Shown here: piece after piece, positions 37,579-57,756 of the stretch | Numbering within the stretch: position 1 is the first letter of the stretch | How the letters are laid out: each line of letters starts with the position of its first letter | Origin: Candidatus Woesearchaeota archaeon | GTDB lineage: Archaea > Nanobdellota > Nanobdellia > SCGC-AAA011-G17 > JACPIM01 | Direction of reading: 5' to 3' | Assembly (NCBI GenBank): GCA_043817645.1 | Contig: JBDRGP010000014.1 | Location: forward strand, 11,879-75,878 | DNA length: 64,000 bases | The notes under the pieces: model-generated | What the model was told of the DNA's origin: nothing | Database searches by the model: none | The model's input: the letters and a program-made list of their open reading frames with translations, nothing else | Position numbers and translations under genes: made by a program

Positions 37579-39084
37579 ATGCCATCGTATATCAAGAAGT
37601 GCCCAGAATGTGGGGGCATTAATTTAATCCTTAATAAAGAAAAAGGAGAAGTTCTTTGCAAAGACTGTGGTCTTGTTATAGAAGAAAAACTAGTAGATTT
37701 TGGCCAAGAATGGCGTGAATTTGACTCAGACCAATCTGCAAAAAGAAGAAGAACTGGTGCTCCTATGACCTATTCTGTTCTAGGATTTGAGCCTATTATT
37801 GTTAGAAATAACGATCAAGTAAAAATAATCAAAATAAGCGACTTTATTGACGAAATAATGGAAAATAACTTCATCAACGTCGCATCCGACGGCCATTTAG
37901 AAATATTAGATATAGGCCACAAAGACTTCGAGGCAATATCTTTTGATGAAGATTACAACGTTGATTTTCAAAAAATTAGTGAAGTTTCAAGACACCCCGT
38001 TCAGGAAGCCTATGAAATCCTTCTAGACAGTGGAAAAAAAGTTGAAGTCACTGGAAGTCACAGTGTGTTTACAGAAAAAAATAAGAAAGTTATTCCGATT
38101 AGAGTAGATGAATTAAAAGAAAATCAATGTATAGTAGGTCCAAAACCCGAAGTAATCTCTCAATTAATAAGCTATGTTAACGTAGAATCAAATGGTTCAC
38201 AACTATTAATGAAAAAAAGGCTAACTACCTCTCCATTTATCCTATATAATATCAAATCAATCAAAAAAGTAAAGCCTTCCACTCCTTATGCATATGACCT
38301 AACAGTCCCGGGATATGAAAACTTCGTAGGTGGAAGAGGAGGAATATTCTTACATAACACTAAATATGACAGAGGTCTAGGAACAGACGTAGGCCAAAAA
38401 GGAGATATCTTCAAATTATCAGGAAAAGGTAGAAATAAATTCTTTAGATTAAGAAAATGGCAATACAGAATATCCACAGCTATTGAAAGAAACCTAAAAT
38501 TAGCCTTAGCAGAGCTAAAAAGAGTCGCCTCATACCTAAAATTACCTAAATCAGTAGAAGAAGAAGCATCAAGGATATACACTCTAGCAGTCCAAAGAGG
38601 ATTAGTAAGAGGAAGATCAATGGAGTCTGTAGTTGCAGGAGCATTATATGCTGCATGCAGACGTCACGAAGTTCCAAGAACATTAGATGAACTATCAGAA
38701 GCATCAGGAATAGATAAAAAAGAAATTGGAAGAACATACAGATTCGTAACAAGAGAGCTAGGAATAAGAATCCTACCAAGTAATCCTTTAGACTATATTC
38801 CAAGATTTGCATCTGCACTAAAATTAACACCAGAAACACAAAGTAAGGCAGTAGAAATCCTAGAAATGGCTGAAAACTCAGAATTAACTTCAGGAAGAGG
38901 CCCAACAGGAATAGCAGCAGCATCATTATACGTAGCAGCCCTAATCAACAATGAAAAAAAGACACAAAGAGAAGTAGCAGATATTGCGGGTGTAACAGAA
39001 GTAACAATTAGAAACAGATATAAAGAATTACTCAAAAAACTAAAATTAGAAGACAAAATAAAAAAAATAAAAAAAGCAGCTTAG
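37579..39084 (+). CDS. tfb: Transcription initiation factor TFB (TFIIB) interrupted in frame by a mini-intein
   Basis: Zinc ribbon CPECGG...CKDCG, B-finger region RRRTGAPMTY|...|TKYDRGLGT, and two cyclin repeats. Shine-Dalgarno GGGGGG at 37568-37573. Confidence 0.9.
   Translation: MPSYIKKCPECGGINLILNKEKGEVLCKDCGLVIEEKLVDFGQEWREFDSDQSAKRRRTGAPMTYSVLGFEPIIVRNNDQVKIIKISDFIDEIMENNFINVASDGHLEILDIGHKDFEAISFDEDYNVDFQKISEVSRHPVQEAYEILLDSGKKVEVTGSHSVFTEKNKKVIPIRVDELKENQCIVGPKPEVISQLISYVNVESNGSQLLMKKRLTTSPFILYNIKSIKKVKPSTPYAYDLTVPGYENFVGGRGGIFLHNTKYDRGLGTDVGQKGDIFKLSGKGRNKFFRLRKWQYRISTAIERNLKLALAELKRVASYLKLPKSVEEEASRIYTLAVQRGLVRGRSMESVVAGALYAACRRHEVPRTLDELSEASGIDKKEIGRTYRFVTRELGIRILPSNPLDYIPRFASALKLTPETQSKAVEILEMAENSELTSGRGPTGIAAASLYVAALINNEKKTQREVADIAGVTEVTIRNRYKELLKKLKLEDKIKKIKKAA
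37774..38358 (+). other. 195-aa mini-intein within tfb (Ser1 ... His-Asn, +1 Thr)
   Basis: Block B VEVTGSHSVFT (TxxH), block F/G YAYDLTVPGYENFVGGRGGIFLHN followed by T. No LAGLIDADG motif. Removal yields GAPMTYTKYDRGLGT, which matches the TFB consensus. Confidence 0.8.
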
Positions 39085-40354: not shown

Positions 40355-40882
40355 ATGTCCACAAAAAAATTCAAAGCAGCCTTCTCAAGAGAAGTTGTAA
40401 TTTCTGAAGGTAAGGAAGCCAGATCTGTCTATGACAAAAGCAGATTTGGTGAAATTAAAGACAAAAAAATACTTTACACCCTAGTAGAAGCTCTATACTT
40501 AATAGAAACAAAAAAAATGAATGTTTATGACTCAAACAATAAAATAATCAAAGAAGAAGCATTCATTAAAAAAGCAAGAGATCTAGAGCCAAATTTCACT
40601 GTAAGATACGCAGTATTCAAAGAATTAAGATCCCGTGGTTATGTAGTAAAAACCGCTCTAAAGTTTGGAGCAGATTTCAGAGTATATGACAGAGGAGTAA
40701 AACCAGGAGAAGACCATGCAAAATGGATAGTTTTTCCGGTATTTGAAACAGACGTCCTAACCTGGTTTGATTTTGCAGCAAAAAACAGAGTAGCCCATAG
40801 CACAAGAAAGAAACTTTTACTGGCAGTAGTAGACTCTGAAAAAGATGTTAGTTTCTGGGAATCCGGCTGGATAAAGCCATAA
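40355..40882 (+). CDS. endA: tRNA-splicing endonuclease EndA, short single-unit (alpha4-like) form
   Basis: RSRGYVVKTALKFGADFRVY (catalytic Tyr), EDHAKW (His), STRKKLLLAVV (Lys). 175 aa. Confidence 0.85.
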   Translation: MSTKKFKAAFSREVVISEGKEARSVYDKSRFGEIKDKKILYTLVEALYLIETKKMNVYDSNNKIIKEEAFIKKARDLEPNFTVRYAVFKELRSRGYVVKTALKFGADFRVYDRGVKPGEDHAKWIVFPVFETDVLTWFDFAAKNRVAHSTRKKLLLAVVDSEKDVSFWESGWIKP

Positions 40883-43604: not shown

Positions 43605-43965
43605 ATGACAGAAGAAACTAAACCAGAAGAAAAACCAACAAAGACAATGAACAAAGACGACCACGTGGTATTCATCGGTAGCAAACCGTTCATGAAAGGA
43701 TCTCAGTGAAAGCTGTTATCCCAGGATTTACGTTACCGGTGTCGTTATGCAATTTACAACACAAGGAGCAGACGAAGTAGTAATCAAAGGCAGAGGAAAA
43801 TTCATAACAAGATGTGTTGACGTTGCAGAAGTAGCATCTAAGAGATTCCTACAAGGACAGATAGAAGTAACAGACGTTAAACTAAACAGTGAAGAATTCA
43901 AAAACAAAGAAGGGAGAGACGTCAGAGTTTCCACTATAGAAATTAGTCTTGACAGAACAAAATAA
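43605..43965 (+). CDS. albA: Alba (Sac10b) DNA/RNA-binding protein, split. join(43605..43696,43728..43965) gives a 109-aa product
   Basis: Frame 0 gives ..DDHVVFIGSKPFMKGSQ*. Frame +1 from 43729 gives YVTGVVMQFTTQGADEVVIKGRGKFITRCVDVAEVASKRFL...VSTIEISL. The joined protein aligns without gaps to Alba (VVLIGKKPVMNYV.AV.TQ...EV.IKARG.AI.KAVDVAE). Confidence 0.75.
43697..43727 (+). other. Candidate 31-nt bulge-helix-bulge intron in albA mRNA
   Basis: Central helix C43691-G43725, U43693-A43723, G43694-C43722, with an A43692/G43724 mismatch. The 3-nt bulges are AAA 43695-43697 and AUU 43726-43728. Inner helix is GGAU 43698-43701 with AUCC 43718-43721 plus CAG/CUG. Outer helix is CGU 43687-43689 with ACG 43730-43732. 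Confidence 0.55.
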
Positions 43966-43993: not shown

Positions 43994-46972
43994 TCACTCT
44001 AAGGCCTTAGCAATTTTATTAGCTGCTTTTTTTATTTCCAGAAGTATAAAACCTAAATTAGCCTTGGGCTTAACTAAACAGACGAGTATAGCCTTCTTAC
44101 CCGCGGTTACAGCAACAAATCTTTTTGTCTTAGTATTAATGATTATATGATTCAACCCACCTCTCCCGAGCTTAGCCAAACTTTCCCTAGCAGAATTAAC
44201 CATCAAAGCAGATGTGGCAGAAAATTTTTCCGCCTTTTTAATCGCAGATATATTTGAAGCAATAATCAGTCCTTCTTTTGAAATAACACTCACTCCGCTT
44301 ACATCTCCAACACCAATCAAACCCTTCAACACCTTCACTAAAACAGCTTTTTTAGTTTCCTTACCCATCACCCTAAACCCATACTTCTCCAAGGCCTTCT
44401 TAGCCTCCACTTTAGAAAGCGCCTTTGTTTTCTTTTTTTGCTTCTTTATTACATAAGCTAGAAGTAACAAAAGCAAGAGCACTACAAGAGACCCCGTAGA
44501 TAAAGCCACCGGATTGGTTAATGCTTCTCCAATAGTTGACTGGTCTTCTACTCTTTCTTCAGAAGCACCTTCCTCACCCTGCTCCCCTACAGTACCATCA
44601 AGAATTCCTGTTGGAAAATCAGGAAAATTAGTAAATCTCTGAGATTCATCTACTCCTACACCCTCAGCAATTTCATCCCTTCTGGGAGATCCGCCACCAC
44701 CAGTGCCAATTCCGCCCCCTCCACCAGTACCAGTATCAGCTCTAACTACTAAATTTATATTCGGCGCATTACCATCTTCTGCACCTAAAGAAGTGCTGTA
44801 TCCAAGCACAGTAGCCTCACACACCACCTCTAATCTACCATAGTATGAGTTTATAGATGGTTGACTAAGAGTAAGAGTCAAAGTAATAGACTCATCTACA
44901 CCAACACTAAAATCATTATCAGAAAACTCTCCAAAATTAGAAATATCAAATCCAGTTATAGTCGGAATACATCCAGTGAGATCATAATTCCCAGTATTGT
45001 TCAACATCCAAGAGACTACTAGACTCTCATCATTCTCCATCTCTAAATCAACATCACAAGTACCCAATCCGCACACTATCCGAGAAATGGGAGTCAGAGC
45101 CTCAGGATTCCCACTTGGAGGATTAACCCCAATAGTTAGAGGAACTATAAAATCCGTTCCATCATTTATTCTCCGTATAGTAATATTCCCTTCATATGAA
45201 GTTTCATCCAAAACATCATCATCAATATCAATAACAACCTGATTCTTGAAAAGGTTAGATGTATTAAACACAGCATTACTAATATTCGCAGAATTATTAG
45301 TAAACGTTAATGTAAAATAAGTTTCATTTAGATCATAAGAAAAGTTAAGTTCATATATATCGCTAGACTGATGATACAAGCTCAAATTCCAAATTAGGGT
45401 CTGATTCTTAGGATCCGGTGCTACAATATACTCCGCAGGAAAAATAGAAATATCACTATACACAAAAAAGCTAACATTTCCCAGCACAGTATTAGTACCA
45501 TCTGAGACAGAATAAGAAAAATTCCAAATTCCATAATCATCTACAGTACAAGATGTAGAGTTCCATATTGAATAATCACCTACAGTGAAATTATTTCCCA
45601 ACTGGTTATCAACAACGTCCGTTCCATCCGGAGAAGTTATCGTAAAACTAACAAACTCAATAGTATCGCCCTCAGTATCTGAAACATTTACCTGAACAAA
45701 AAAACTATCTCCAAAAACAGGAGTAGCTATAGTATTATTTACAATAGTTCTATTAGACTCTATCACTGGCGGAAGGTTCGGAGAAACATCATTCACAGTA
45801 AATGTACCTGATGAGCTTGATGAACAAGCATTATCATCATCGCACACATAAGCATAGTAATCCTGTACTCCAATATCAGATGCGCTAGTTGTATAAGCGC
45901 AGCTTTCTGGATTTGAAGTTGTAAATGTTGAGGAATCACACCATGAACCGCCATCACATACTTGACCGGTTATAGCATCAGTCTTACATAGATGTACCTT
46001 AATCTTATCACCTGCATCAGCATCATCCCAGTCTACACTGAATGTAACATCCGAGCCTTCATCAACTGGGTCTGGTGAATCACTAGCAGAAGTTATTGTA
46101 GGAGCACTATTTAGGATGGTATAAGATATAGTAACATTATATAGCTCCGGCGAAAAAGAAATATCACTAGTCTCAAATTCCACCCTATATTGAAAGAACT
46201 GATTATCTATCTCAGATAAAGTAACTAATGTTGAATTTATATAGGGCCCATTCCAAGATTCCCCAACACAATCAGAGTCATCACATGAATGAGTATAAAC
46301 AGAAATATTTGTTAACGAAGCAAGCATAGCCAAGATACCATATTGGTTATCAGTATTCTCATCAGAATAAGCATCATTAATCAAAGTCCAGGTGGCACCG
46401 GAATCTGTGGATTTGTAAATTCTTTTATTTTTTACAGTAGCATAAAGATTATTATCCGAATCAGTTGTAATACCCCTTGGATCCTCTGGAAAAGCAGTAT
46501 CATTGAGCAAAGTCCAAATAGCACCAGAATCTGTGGATTTGTAAACTGCCCGATCACCTTGCCGTGTTATAATAAACAAACCATCGGAGTTAGAGGTTAT
46601 ACCTCCTATATCATCGCCATCAAATCTAAATACACCATTAATCTCTATCCAAGTTACTCCTAAATCAGAAGATCTCCATAAATCTCTATGATTGTCCGCA
46701 GCAAATAAATATTCAGTGTCATAATTGATTTCATACCAACCAAGATTGTCCCACTGAGCTACTGAACCGGCATCAAAGACCTTACTAGTATAATTTCCAG
46801 AATCAAACCCCTCAGAAAGATTTAGCTGTATAAAATTAGCGGTTGTATTATAAAAAGTTTGGTAATATGTGCCCTCATCAAAATCTGATGGGGAATCATC
46901 TACAAAAGAATCAGCAAGTATGAATAAGCTAAACAACAAGATCCCAACAACTAAAGGATAGTATCTCCTCAT
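43994..46972 (-). CDS. 992-aa surface receptor: signal peptide, BNR/Asp-box repeats, Ig-like domains, Gly-rich stalk, one TM helix, cytoplasmic Roadblock/LC7 domain
   Basis: SSDLGVTW, STDSGAIW and STDSGATW Asp-boxes. Many N-x-S/T sequons. GTGGGGGIGTGGGGS linker. TM LVVLLLLLLLAYVI. The C-terminal 120 aa is a close paralog of the 47773..48144 protein. Confidence 0.75.
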   Translation of the reverse strand: MRRYYPLVVGILLFSLFILADSFVDDSPSDFDEGTYYQTFYNTTANFIQLNLSEGFDSGNYTSKVFDAGSVAQWDNLGWYEINYDTEYLFAADNHRDLWRSSDLGVTWIEINGVFRFDGDDIGGITSNSDGLFIITRQGDRAVYKSTDSGAIWTLLNDTAFPEDPRGITTDSDNNLYATVKNKRIYKSTDSGATWTLINDAYSDENTDNQYGILAMLASLTNISVYTHSCDDSDCVGESWNGPYINSTLVTLSEIDNQFFQYRVEFETSDISFSPELYNVTISYTILNSAPTITSASDSPDPVDEGSDVTFSVDWDDADAGDKIKVHLCKTDAITGQVCDGGSWCDSSTFTTSNPESCAYTTSASDIGVQDYYAYVCDDDNACSSSSSGTFTVNDVSPNLPPVIESNRTIVNNTIATPVFGDSFFVQVNVSDTEGDTIEFVSFTITSPDGTDVVDNQLGNNFTVGDYSIWNSTSCTVDDYGIWNFSYSVSDGTNTVLGNVSFFVYSDISIFPAEYIVAPDPKNQTLIWNLSLYHQSSDIYELNFSYDLNETYFTLTFTNNSANISNAVFNTSNLFKNQVVIDIDDDVLDETSYEGNITIRRINDGTDFIVPLTIGVNPPSGNPEALTPISRIVCGLGTCDVDLEMENDESLVVSWMLNNTGNYDLTGCIPTITGFDISNFGEFSDNDFSVGVDESITLTLTLSQPSINSYYGRLEVVCEATVLGYSTSLGAEDGNAPNINLVVRADTGTGGGGGIGTGGGGSPRRDEIAEGVGVDESQRFTNFPDFPTGILDGTVGEQGEEGASEERVEDQSTIGEALTNPVALSTGSLVVLLLLLLLAYVIKKQKKKTKALSKVEAKKALEKYGFRVMGKETKKAVLVKVLKGLIGVGDVSGVSVISKEGLIIASNISAIKKAEKFSATSALMVNSARESLAKLGRGGLNHIIINTKTKRFVAVTAGKKAILVCLVKPKANLGFILLEIKKAANKIAKALE
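43997..44359 (-). other. Cytoplasmic Roadblock/LC7 (MglB-like) domain of the 992-aa receptor
   Basis: GVSVISKEGLIIASN....AGKKAILVCLVKPKANLGFILLEI, compared with GSSIVSRDGLLIASD....AGKTAILVCLIKPKANLGLILLSI in the standalone protein. Confidence 0.7.
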
Positions 46973-47182: not shown

Positions 47183-47776
47183 TCAAATTTTAACCTTAAC
47201 TTTCCGTCCGTCTACCTCAACAACACCATCCATCAGGTGTTCCATACTAGCTACCACCTTCTCATCATGCATGCCTTTCTCTATAATAAAAACTATAGAA
47301 CCATCCACATTCTTTGTTCTCGCAGTTATAATCTGAACAAATCTCCCCACAGCTTCGGGTGTAGAATACATAAGTAATGTAGAAAGACTCTGAAAAAAAA
47401 CATATTGTTTTTTATTTTTTTTATAAAAATAATTCTCTAACTCCGCCAAAGCAACAGAGATCTCATTTAAAGCCAAAGGACCAGGAACTCTTTTAATAAC
47501 AGCAGTATCGGAGACAGTATTCTGAGTTTGTGCACTATAACAATCAATAAATTTCAAATTGCCTTCCTTTTCATATTTCTCAGGAAGTATTTTATTTTTT
47601 TGCAAAGAAGATTCAACATCCTTAGGAAAATGATCTGTAGTTATAAACAAAACTGTTTTTTTATTATTCAAAGCTTTTGAAACAATCTCATAAAATATCT
47701 TATCCTTCTGAGATAATGGCGGTCCAATTACTAAAATCGCCGATCGTTCTGGTATTTTTGAAAAATAATCGATCAT
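47183..47776 (-). CDS. KaiC/RecA-like domain protein with a degenerate P-loop
   Basis: SAILVIGPPLSQKDKIFYEIV replaces GxxGxGK(S/T). VFFQSLSTLL is Walker-B-like without Asp. KaiC-like length and topology. Confidence 0.5.
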   Translation of the reverse strand: MIDYFSKIPERSAILVIGPPLSQKDKIFYEIVSKALNNKKTVLFITTDHFPKDVESSLQKNKILPEKYEKEGNLKFIDCYSAQTQNTVSDTAVIKRVPGPLALNEISVALAELENYFYKKNKKQYVFFQSLSTLLMYSTPEAVGRFVQIITARTKNVDGSIVFIIEKGMHDEKVVASMEHLMDGVVEVDGRKVKVKI

Positions 47777-48144
47777 CTTAATATTCTTGCTATTTTTTTA
47801 CTTTGAGTATTAATACTCAGTAATATTAAACCCAAATTAGCCTTAGGTTTTATTAAACAAACCAAAATCGCTGTTTTCCCTGCACCTGTAGCAATAATAC
47901 TTCCCATCTTTGAATTCACTATTATCTGATCCGGATTTCCTTTTTTTAATTCAGCAACTGCTGTTTCAGCAGCTCCAGTCATAGCTGCGGACATTGCTGC
48001 AAAAGTCTTTGTATCAACATCAGCTAAAAGATCAGACGCAATAAGTAAGCCATCCCTAGAAACTATAGAAGAACCCTCTACACCACCAACCTTTATTAAA
48101 TCCTTCAAAATTTCCATCATTTTTTCATTCTTCGTTTTTTTCAT
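47773..48144 (-). CDS. Roadblock/LC7 (MglB-like) protein
   Basis: 123 aa. VEGSSIVSRDGLLIASDL...AILVCLIKPKANLG pattern. Confidence 0.75.
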   Translation of the reverse strand: MKKTKNEKMMEILKDLIKVGGVEGSSIVSRDGLLIASDLLADVDTKTFAAMSAAMTGAAETAVAELKKGNPDQIIVNSKMGSIIATGAGKTAILVCLIKPKANLGLILLSINTQSKKIARILR

Positions 48145-48154
48145 CTTTTACACC

Positions 48155-48526
48155 TCATTTAATAAATGGAATTATATGGCCCCCAGCCCTATTCATGTGA
48201 AACAAAACCATGCCAAGATTAGCTTTTAATTTTAACAAGCAAACCAAAACAGCTCTCTTCCCAACATTACTTACTATAATTTCTCCTTTTGTGGAATTCA
48301 AAATCACCTGTAATGGATCTCCCATCTTCAACTCAGACATAACTATCCCTCTAGATTTAGCAATTTCTGCACCCATAGCCGCCAATACCCCGGAATCAGT
48401 ATTGGCCCTCAAATCAGATGCAATAAGTAGTCCATCTTTAGAAATCACCGCACATCCCTCTATATCGTCCACTTTTTGACGTAAATTTTTAATTATATCC
48501 AAAATATGGGATTTATCTGTTTTCAT
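48155..48526 (-). CDS. Roadblock/LC7 (MglB-like) protein
   Basis: 123 aa. IEGCAVISKDGLLIASDL...AVLVCLLKLKANLG. Confidence 0.75.
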   Translation of the reverse strand: MKTDKSHILDIIKNLRQKVDDIEGCAVISKDGLLIASDLRANTDSGVLAAMGAEIAKSRGIVMSELKMGDPLQVILNSTKGEIIVSNVGKRAVLVCLLKLKANLGMVLFHMNRAGGHIIPFIK

Positions 48527-57670: not shown

Positions 57671-57756
57671 GGGCCTGTAGTTTAGTCTGGATAGAATAGA
57701 AGGCTTCGGAGTGTAGGAGAAACCTTCAGACCTAGGTTCAAATCCTAGCAGGCCCG
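57671..57756 (+). tRNA. tRNA-Arg(UCG) with a 12-nt intron at the canonical 37/38 position. CCA is not encoded.
   Basis: Acceptor GGGCCTG/CAGGCCC, D-arm with GG, anticodon stem GAAGG/CCTTC, loop CUUCGG|intron|A, T-arm CTAGG-TTCAAAT-CCTAG, discriminator G, then TTTT. Confidence 0.85.
57710..57721 (+). other. tRNA-Arg intron (AGTGTAGGAGAA)
   Basis: CUUC (32-35) pairs with intron GGAG. There is a 3-nt AAA bulge at the 3-prime site, and the 5-prime site lies in the GGA-GUGUA loop (bulge-helix-loop). Confidence 0.75.

Follow-up and report, generated by a model that had tools for sequence, protein, structure and literature searches.

The window analysed here, a stretch of 64,000 nucleotides (nt) of a contig from a woesearchaeon (Woesearchaeota, DPANN archaea), carries on its plus strand, at positions 43605-43965, a gene for the chromatin/RNA-binding protein Alba whose reading frame is interrupted. 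The exon-1 open reading frame (ORF) at 43605-43709 reads MTEETKPEEKPTKTMNKDDHVVFIGSKPFMKGSQ and ends in ...VVFIGSKPFMKGSQ*, the stop codon being the UGA at 43707-43709, and Alba coding resumes in the +1 frame at YVTGVVMQFTTQG... (YVTGVVMQF...) and runs up to the stop codon at 43963-43965. An earlier reading of the window from its letters alone (the original prediction) had attributed this interruption to a 31-nt intron framed by a bulge-helix-bulge (BHB) element, and both the stop and the continuation in the +1 frame lie where it had seen them. The analysis reported here indicates that the window's Alba is very probably a functional gene split by a 31-nt archaeal BHB intron, and that this intron belongs to a family of such elements found in woesearchaeal and pacearchaeal Alba genes.

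Exon-intron structure predicted for Alba

In the predicted structure, exon 1 (43605-43696, plus strand) holds codons 1-30 and the AA of the Asn-31 codon, the 31-nt intron (43697-43727, plus strand; AGGAUCUCAGUGAAAGCUGUUAUCCCAGGAU) follows, and exon 2 (43728-43965, plus strand) supplies the U that completes the Asn-31 codon and then runs from codon 32 through codon 109 to the stop codon; excision of the intron would restore Alba. Consistent with these borders, tblastn of the spliced protein aligns residues 1-30 with exon 1 and residues 32-109 with 43729-43962. When 43697-43727 is deleted in silico, AUG-AA is joined to U-UAC and a protein of 109 amino acids (aa) results, which reads ...KPFMNYVTGVV... 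around the junction and has the junction peptide ...PFMNYVTGVVMQFTTQGADEVVIK. It matches the Pfam Alba family (PF01918) without a break at the junction (residues 20-83 aligned to positions 1-64 of the 66-position profile, E = 2.8e-16), and its score of 59.5 bits against a cut-off of 25 places it in that family. In addition, the spliced protein matches 11 solved Alba chains, and the gap-free alignment of HVVFIGSKPFMNYVTGVV with HVVYIGKKPVMNYVLAVI of 2Z7C has an E value of 1.6e-23. Thus, the claim that removal of exactly 43697-43727 gives KPFMNYVTGVV has stood up, the product being a 109-aa Alba that aligns with solved structures without a gap. The restored residues are those expected of the family: 115 of 120 uninterrupted Alba homologues have FMNYV at the junction, and L084, the nearest relative without the intron (91% identity in exon 2), reads ATG AAT TAC, ATGAATTAC, exactly as predicted.

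The unspliced mRNA codes for a 34-residue peptide only, because the intron holds the UGA at 43707-43709 (plus strand) in the exon-1 reading frame. In the output of gene callers and in the NCBI annotation, the window's Alba is represented by fragments only, of 34, 72 and 79 aa, and an AUG at 43747 is a possible start of the 72-aa fragment. The 79-aa NCBI protein, 'MYVTGVV...' (P0122; same or near-identical contig, 43726-43965), implies an ATT start at 43726, within the intron and its bulge, and is an example of how gene callers misannotate a split gene.

The bulge-helix-bulge element and its cleavage rule

The predicted element lies on the plus strand and is built from exon and intron bases. 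Its outer, exon-exon helix pairs CGU (43687-43689) with ACG (43730-43732), the middle pair joining the third base of a Pro codon to the third base of a Tyr codon, and a U.U mismatch (43690 with 43729) abuts this helix. The central 4-base-pair (bp) helix is formed by CAUG of the exon (43691-43694) and CAGG of the intron (43722-43725), with the pairs C-G, A.G mismatch, U-A and G-C. Next to it are the 5' bulge AAA (43695-43697), with a predicted cut between 43696 and 43697, and the 3' bulge AUU (43726-43728), with a predicted cut between 43727 and 43728. The intron itself would form an inner helix GGAU/AUCC (43698-701 with 43718-21), then a 2x2 internal loop and, in the RNAalifold consensus, an apical stem CAGU/GCUG (43704-07 with 43712-15) capped by a GNRA tetraloop, GAAA (43708-11). 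Both bulges sit 3' of their own central-helix strand, which is the topology of genuine BHB motifs and not their mirror image. The locus therefore offers two 3-nt bulges on opposite strands around a helix of three pairs and one A.G mismatch, together with the flanking helices h and h'; RNAalifold, run on six sequences of the subfamily to which the window's intron belongs, independently arrived at the outer, the inner and the apical helix. Every base of the BHB named in the original prediction was found at its given position, except that the hexaloop proposed to close the inner helix is better read as the 4-bp stem CAGU/GCUG with a GNRA tetraloop (GAAA; GAGA in relatives).

A reference for the cleavage positions is provided by the only tRNA gene in the window, tRNA-Arg(UCG) (57671-57756, plus strand; Rfam tRNA, 55.2 bits). 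It contains a 12-nt intron (57710-57721) in a canonical 37/38 BHB, with the central helix CUUC/GGAG and bulges cut after the second nucleotide on both sides (GG/A and AA/A). As the original prediction had it, this rule holds for the tRNA: once 57710-57721 is removed, ARAGORN calls a 74-nt tRNA-Arg(tcg). Applied in silico, the same single rule yields the tRNA-Arg, the full-length Alba of the window and KPFMNYV in all 41 relatives analysed.

The predicted cleaving enzyme is encoded nearby, again as originally proposed. The endA gene (40355-40882, plus strand), 2.7 kb upstream, specifies a catalytically complete tRNA-splicing endonuclease of 175 aa with Pfam matches to tRNA_int_endo (PF01974, E = 5.7e-27) and to the N-terminal domain (PF02778, E = 1e-10). 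Its nearest solved chains are the N. equitans alpha subunit (3IEY_A, the best match) and the M. jannaschii alpha4 enzyme (1A79, end to end), and the alignment with both shows the Tyr, His and Lys catalytic motifs to be present. Both domains are carried by one and the same subunit, and nothing resembling a beta subunit came up in the window.

The same intron in other assemblies and near relatives

Two contigs from other sources, L081 (ENA ERZ27247128) and L082 (Logan SRR6514274), are 100% identical to the window including the insert, and both encode the 72-aa fragment. In a relative from another sample (L083, SRR27205362), the same 31 nt are found with one substitution, G43724 to A, at a position that is already mismatched, and the metagenome contigs L245 and L246 carry the same intron with one or two changes (the relatives' samples being SRR27205362, Ga0209541 and Ga0190284). 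With the more distant L192 and L224, five loci thus have an intron homologous to that of the window. A pattern search of the GTDB species genomes for a near-identical intron gave 0 matches.

Between the window and L083, the ratio of nonsynonymous to synonymous change (dN/dS) is 0.08 in exon 1 and 0.11 in exon 2, at a proportion of synonymous differences (pS) of about 0.39, and one Ser codon of exon 1 has switched from AGC to UCA. Judged by these ratios, both Alba exons are under purifying selection, with dN/dS of about 0.1. Across the window, L083, L245 and L246, the intron differs at 1-3 of its 31 positions and third codon positions differ by 29-50%. Among these four hosts, every intron change falls on an unpaired base, in the mismatch, a bulge or the internal loop or at the third position of the tetraloop. 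In L192 and L224, the GNRA tetraloop is kept, as GAAA or GAGA, and a compensatory C-G to A-U change is seen in the apical stem (L192 in the RNAalifold consensus).

A family of interrupted Alba genes

Interrupted loci were collected with an exon-2-only query, and further loci were added through the DNA pattern ATGAA-N15-45-TAYGTNACNGGNGTNNTNATGCA. In total, 48 of 163 distinct Alba loci of Woesearchaeota and Pacearchaeota are interrupted within one 5-nt stretch, as are 23 of the 80 GTDB species representatives closest in exon 2. A query with the full-length spliced Alba gave no interrupted gene among its best 80 genome loci and best 120 proteins, since split genes score lower. More than 40 genomes, sequenced in many different projects, have analogous introns; one of them is the closed genome CP010426.1 (archaeon GW2011_AR20). 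A comparison of orthologous albA loci, suggested in the original prediction, thus turned up both interrupted and uninterrupted relatives, the intron-less ones carrying the predicted junction. It had also named relatives interrupted by divergent, non-BHB sequence as a sign of a pseudogene; the opposite was found, since the 48 interruptions differ in sequence and share the BHB architecture.

Three insertion positions can be distinguished. Site A, that of the window, lies inside the Asn codon between ATGAA and Y-TAYGT (33 loci); site B is 4 nt upstream, inside the Met codon between TTYA and TGAAY (12 loci); and site A' is 1 nt downstream of site A (2 loci). The remaining locus of the 48 (L104) has twin introns at sites A and B, about 100 nt upstream of position 1501 of that locus, and a second such case, L174, was parsed by hand. 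The introns are 21-35 nt long, with each of the three classes modulo 3 represented, and all 41 relatives analysed splice in silico to ...KPFMNYVTGV.... In 31 of 31 site-A genes, exon 2 begins with a pyrimidine, as the Asn codon requires. In L104 and L174, a 4-nt micro-exon, UGAA, would stand between the two introns; the central helix of the second intron is perfect only after the first is removed in L104 and only before its removal in L174, which hints at ordered splicing. A stop codon in the exon-1 frame lies inside the intron in 41 of 41 cases, compared with 15 and 22 of 41 for the other two frames, and in 21 of 31 site-A introns it occupies intron nt 8-10, directly past the 5' strand of the inner helix.

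On a neighbour-joining tree of exon 2, the intron state changes 28 times under parsimony, compared with about 41 times when states are shuffled. Seen on this tree, the distribution of the intron is patchy, the gene being too short to tell gains from losses. Many site-A introns have in common an apical-loop motif, approximately UAAGUUAAGKCUUU (for example, L103, L108, L121, L145, L194, L195, L204, L207 and L236), which persists although the helices differ, and the window's subfamily has the GNRA-capped stem instead; the shared motif suggests common descent or a function of the loop. Furthermore, in L026, L145 and L185, Alba is immediately preceded by a double-domain ORF resembling a LAGLIDADG_3 homing endonuclease (Pfam E = 3e-16 to 3e-20), which runs in frame and without a stop into exon 1 of Alba and has dwindled to a remnant in L185. 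Such an ORF is found upstream in 3 of 49 intron-bearing loci versus 0 of 123 uninterrupted ones, and it may be linked to mobility of the intron or of the allele.

Covariation of intron and exon positions

Ungapped alignments were anchored on the splice sites predicted from the protein and comprised 12 exon nt, 7 intron nt, 12 intron nt and 7 exon nt. At site A (n = 31), 78.3% of cells are paired versus 58.9% in shuffled alignments (0 of 500 as high), and the covariation score is 0.540, compared with 0.160 when shuffled and at most 0.185 with slid partners; at site B (n = 11), 77.9% are paired versus 61.6%, with scores of 0.518 and 0.183, all these figures counting related sequences as independent, so that p-values overstate independence. 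All six inner-helix pairs have changed on both sides, in site A as well as in site B, and 83.9% of inner-helix cells are paired at site A. For the central helix, paired cells amount to 75.8% at site A and 97.7% at site B. Its pairs 1-4 are formed in 25, 14, 27 and 28 of the 31 site-A sequences, and the second pair, the A.G of the window, is therefore the weak one family-wide. In strict register, at least three of the four central pairs are present in 25 of 31 site-A introns.

The outer helix extends the comparison to coding bases, for which intron-less genes are, in such an alignment, a built-in control. The third bases of the Pro and Tyr codons can pair in 28 of 31 site-A genes (G-C in 15, A-U in 11, G.U in 2) versus 46 of 123 uninterrupted genes (Fisher p = 1e-7), and the G-C combination occurs in 15 of 31 versus 1 of 123. 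At site B, where the register is another, the Pro third base pairs with an intron base in 11 of 11 genes, by three pair types. In these alignments, covariation of synonymous exon bases with the partners predicted for them is confined to intron-bearing genes.

Chance occurrence of the motif

To gauge chance, the window was scanned for relaxed BHB motifs, for which 3 or more of 4 pairs were required in both the outer and the central helix, along with 3-nt bulges, 4 or more bp in the inner helix and an intron length of 15-60 nt. The plus strand gave 705 matches, about 2.4e-4 per combination of site and length, and the sole combination that restores Alba is among them. The minus strand gave 3845 matches and shuffles about 530; the minus strand is G+T-rich, which leads to five times more chance BHB-like motifs there. 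The underlying strand skew runs through the whole window (1-64000: A 37%, T 29%, C 21%, G 13%; GC skew about -0.24) and is seen in every 8-kb bin whatever the gene orientation. As many as 354 scan matches are 'ORF-joining' candidates, mostly at ordinary gene boundaries. No evidence of a second mRNA intron in the window emerged, Pfam searches with the ten most suggestive neighbouring ORFs giving unrelated families.

A model of splicing and its alternatives

Taken together, the observations can be cast as a mechanism. In the pre-mRNA, exon bases would pair with one another (CGU with ACG) to form the outer helix, exon CAUG would pair with the intron's 3' end, CAGG, to form the central 4-bp helix, and the intron would fold on itself into the inner helix and the GNRA-capped stem. 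This fold would display two 3-nt bulges on opposite strands, each of which EndA (40355-40882) would cleave after the second nucleotide, and an RNA ligase, presumed to be RtcB, would then join AUG-AA to U-UAC and thereby rebuild the Asn codon and the frame (...KPFM-N-YVTGV...). EndA substrates are defined by just such a geometry, two 3-nt bulges with 4 bp between them (PMC6379350), and EndA enzymes cut BHB motifs in non-tRNA contexts including mRNA (PMC10485636, PMC7714728). Every in silico test run supports the reading as a BHB intron that would be removed by the tRNA-splicing endonuclease; splicing in vivo, EndA as its enzyme, ligation and efficiency are what we infer from it.

Several observations weigh against this model, in addition to the overstated independence of the covariation p-values. 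The BHB of the window is imperfect at two places, the A.G mismatch in the central helix and the U.U mismatch abutting the outer helix, and several members of the family have relaxed motifs, with two of four central pairs or a 4-nt 3' bulge (L185, L190). As for the enzymes, EndA is without a substrate-broadening loop insertion relative to the strict M. jannaschii enzyme 1A79, and RtcB was not found among the 30 ORFs of the window scanned with Pfam. At the protein level, the exact spliced products of 10 intron-bearing loci are absent from a collection of 15 billion proteins, and the window's spliced protein has no identical homologue, the best being 87% identical. Folding energy likewise speaks against the model: the minimum free energy (MFE) of the single sequence is -10.8 kcal/mol with a z-score of only -1.16, the BHB structure evaluates to -6.8 kcal/mol, and the 4-bp central helix is predicted neither by the MFE fold nor by RNAalifold. 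The folding of the region envisaged in the original prediction thus bears out the outer, inner and apical helices (RNAalifold) and fails to return the central one. Thermodynamics alone is weak support for the window's BHB.

Two elements of the MFE fold that compete with the BHB were considered and rejected. Its 10-bp outer helix (43673-82 with 43732-41) has 7 of 10 pairs broken in L083, and its pairing of A43692 with U43727 and U43693 with A43726 involves the last two intron bases, which vary freely among relatives.

Other explanations of the interrupted gene fare less well than the BHB intron. The best of them, itself very unlikely, is that the two ORFs are translated separately and assemble as a split protein, or that the insert is excised by a nuclease other than EndA. 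Nanoarchaeum does have split protein genes, and the AUG at 43747 could start the 72-aa fragment. However, this internal Met lies 7 codons into exon 2, so that the conserved YVTGVV (dN/dS 0.11) would go untranslated, and a split protein needs neither a conserved BHB nor the exact restoration of an Asn codon. Another nuclease might seem attractive in that EndA here is without known specificity-broadening loops, yet the geometry of the motif is the very definition of an EndA substrate (PMC6379350) and matches that of the tRNA intron in the window.

Translational recoding, in which the ribosome would bypass or frameshift over the insert of an unspliced RNA, has a slighter chance again. The short structured insert with a stop right past the take-off region superficially resembles phage T4 gene 60, a case of programmed translational bypass. 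The gaps, however, are 21-35 nt long and fall in all classes modulo 3, so no single frameshift would work. Bypass of the gene 60 type requires matched take-off and landing codons, and these do not match here: the codon before the gap is AAA or AAU, and the triplet before UAY varies (AUU, AGU, UGU, AAU, CAU, UAU, AGC, CGU, GGU or UUU). Moreover, a ribosome taking off from AAA would place Lys, or no residue at all, at a position that is Asn in 115 of 120 homologues. Recoding would also leave the two 3-nt bulges, their 4-bp spacing and the synonymous covariation of the exons unexplained.

Lower still stands the idea of a pseudogene, with Alba inactivated by an insertion of 31 nt that resembles a BHB in its fold by coincidence. 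It would account for the broken frame with its in-frame stop, for the annotation of 34-, 72- and 79-aa fragments only and for the unremarkable folding z-score of the single sequence. It is at odds with dN/dS of about 0.1 in both exons at a synonymous divergence of about 0.4, the switch from AGC to UCA in a Ser codon included, and with 48 related loci that keep an interruption at the same place and always restore KPFMNYV. The intron is, besides, far better conserved than synonymous sites and shows strong structural covariation, and a chance BHB at the required site and length has a probability of about 2.4e-4. An assembly or sequencing artefact, that is, a spurious 31-nt insertion, is an a priori possibility in metagenome assemblies and nothing more, and its probability is practically nil given the identical sequence from three sources and assemblers (the window, ENA ERZ27247128 and Logan SRR6514274), the same intron in diverged relatives of other samples (L083, L245 and L246; SRR27205362, Ga0209541 and Ga0190284) and analogous introns in over 40 genomes, a closed one included; the artefact that the original prediction held up as its own refutation was thus not what was found. 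On the sequence comparisons, a pseudogene, an assembly artefact and translational bypass can each be regarded as effectively excluded.

Other genes in the window

Upstream of endA, the gene for transcription factor B (37579-39084, plus strand), with TFIIB repeats and a zinc ribbon, holds an intein (Pfam Intein_splicing, residues 82-260, E = 4e-18). Downstream of Alba, a 992-aa ORF (43994-46972, minus strand) has a Roadblock/LC7-like C-terminus according to precomputed Pfam matches, and it is followed by two Roadblock/LC7 genes and a gene for a KaiC-like/DUF7504 ATPase, the cluster covering 43994-46972 and 47183-48526, both on the minus strand.

Implications

For more than 20 years, cbf5 of a single crenarchaeal clade has been the sole basis for BHB splicing within archaeal coding sequences. 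The Alba introns would add a second, unrelated host gene, another superphylum (DPANN) and dozens of species-level genomes, and they co-occur with an EndA of apparently simple, homo-oligomeric type. With over 40 natural variants, three positions and twin introns, they could serve as a test system for the recognition of mRNA substrates by EndA, for the competition between splicing and coupled translation and for the gain and loss of such introns. There are also consequences for annotation: Alba is miscalled as fragments or as 'partial' in many DPANN genomes, one of them closed, and similar introns in other genes of reduced archaeal genomes may escape gene callers. More broadly, the finding bears on the history of mRNA splicing by protein enzymes, which eukaryotes use for HAC1/XBP1.

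A wider reading, which we offer tentatively and consider rather doubtful, is that the intron acts as a gate on Alba synthesis and is the visible sign of a larger, unannotated set of EndA-dependent introns in protein-coding genes of DPANN archaea. A gate is conceivable because all 41 introns have an in-frame stop, because the window's intron is near-invariant at near-saturated synonymous divergence and because Alba binds structured RNA. If this were true, Alba output would be coupled to the capacity of EndA and the ligase, or be autoregulated by Alba acting on the helix of its own pre-mRNA. The introns could also be mobile, given that near-identical introns occur in diverged hosts, that three positions lie within 5 nt, that twin introns exist and that LAGLIDADG genes adjoin some of the loci.

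Comparison with known systems

The closest known system is the cbf5 pre-mRNA intron of Crenarchaeota, reportedly described by Watanabe and colleagues in 2002 and by Yoshinari and colleagues in 2006. Like it, the Alba intron is a short BHB-type intron in the coding sequence of a gene for an RNA-binding or RNA-processing protein; its removal by tRNA-splicing endonuclease and ligase, with no spliceosome, is predicted from the sequence for Alba; and its phylogenetic distribution is patchy, implying gain and loss. In contrast to cbf5, the host gene is Alba, and the lineage is that of Woesearchaeota and Pacearchaeota in DPANN, not Desulfurococcales and Sulfolobales. The literature links cbf5 introns to relaxed motifs and to a hetero-oligomeric (alpha-beta)2 EndA, whereas the motif in the window is near the canonical 3-4-3 and its EndA seems to consist of one full-length catalytic subunit that has no inserted loop. 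Alba differs further in its three insertion positions within 5 nt and in the twin introns with a 4-nt micro-exon of some genomes, and splicing has been demonstrated experimentally for cbf5 and is deduced from sequence for Alba. The Alba intron would therefore work like the cbf5 intron and yet lie outside that intron family, in gene and lineage, which do differ, and probably in enzyme architecture.

The original prediction had called cbf5 essentially the only known case of a BHB intron in an archaeal protein-coding gene. This holds for introns within coding sequence, for which cbf5 of Crenarchaeota is the described example (Yokobori et al. 2009, PMC2738675), and does not hold for mRNA at large, since HVO_1309 of Haloferax volcanii has a 46-nt intron cut by EndA in its 5' untranslated region (Schwarz et al. 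2020, PMC7714728). In the open literature, only these two archaeal mRNA targets of EndA were found, and no report of an Alba intron or of mRNA introns in DPANN; a 2023 review likewise puts the number of genes known to be spliced at two or more and considers further ones likely to be discovered (PMC10485636). The HVO_1309 case is backed by in vitro and circular RNA sequencing (circRNA-seq) evidence (PMC7714728; PMC10485636), whereas the Alba case is known from sequence. HVO_1309 resembles Alba in being an mRNA with a BHB element, and the cutting of this element by EndA means that EndA has mRNA substrates beyond tRNA and rRNA. It differs in that its 46-nt intron in the 5' untranslated region interrupts no reading frame and in that its host is a euryarchaeon with an alpha'2 enzyme.

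The canonical introns of archaeal pre-tRNAs are said to follow the hBHBh' motif set out by Marck and Grosjean in 2003. The Alba intron has the same two 3-nt bulges 4 bp apart, the same predicted cut after the second bulge nucleotide and the same size range, and in both the central helix pairs an exon strand on its 5' side with an intron strand on its 3' side. Its host RNA is, in contrast, an mRNA, in which codons place a further constraint on the exon strands of the helices, and splicing would restore a codon instead of an anticodon loop.

A more distant parallel is the splicing of HAC1/XBP1 by IRE1, in which a protein endonuclease also cuts two structured sites and an RtcB-type ligase joins the exons, a short intron being removed and the reading frame and protein product being changed. 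The enzyme there, the IRE1 kinase/RNase, is unrelated, twin stem-loops take the place of the BHB, and the reaction is induced by stress, whereas nothing in the Alba case points to regulation. Among archaeal protein-coding genes, Alba would be only the second known whose expression needs this kind of splicing, that is, the removal of a BHB intron from its coding sequence.

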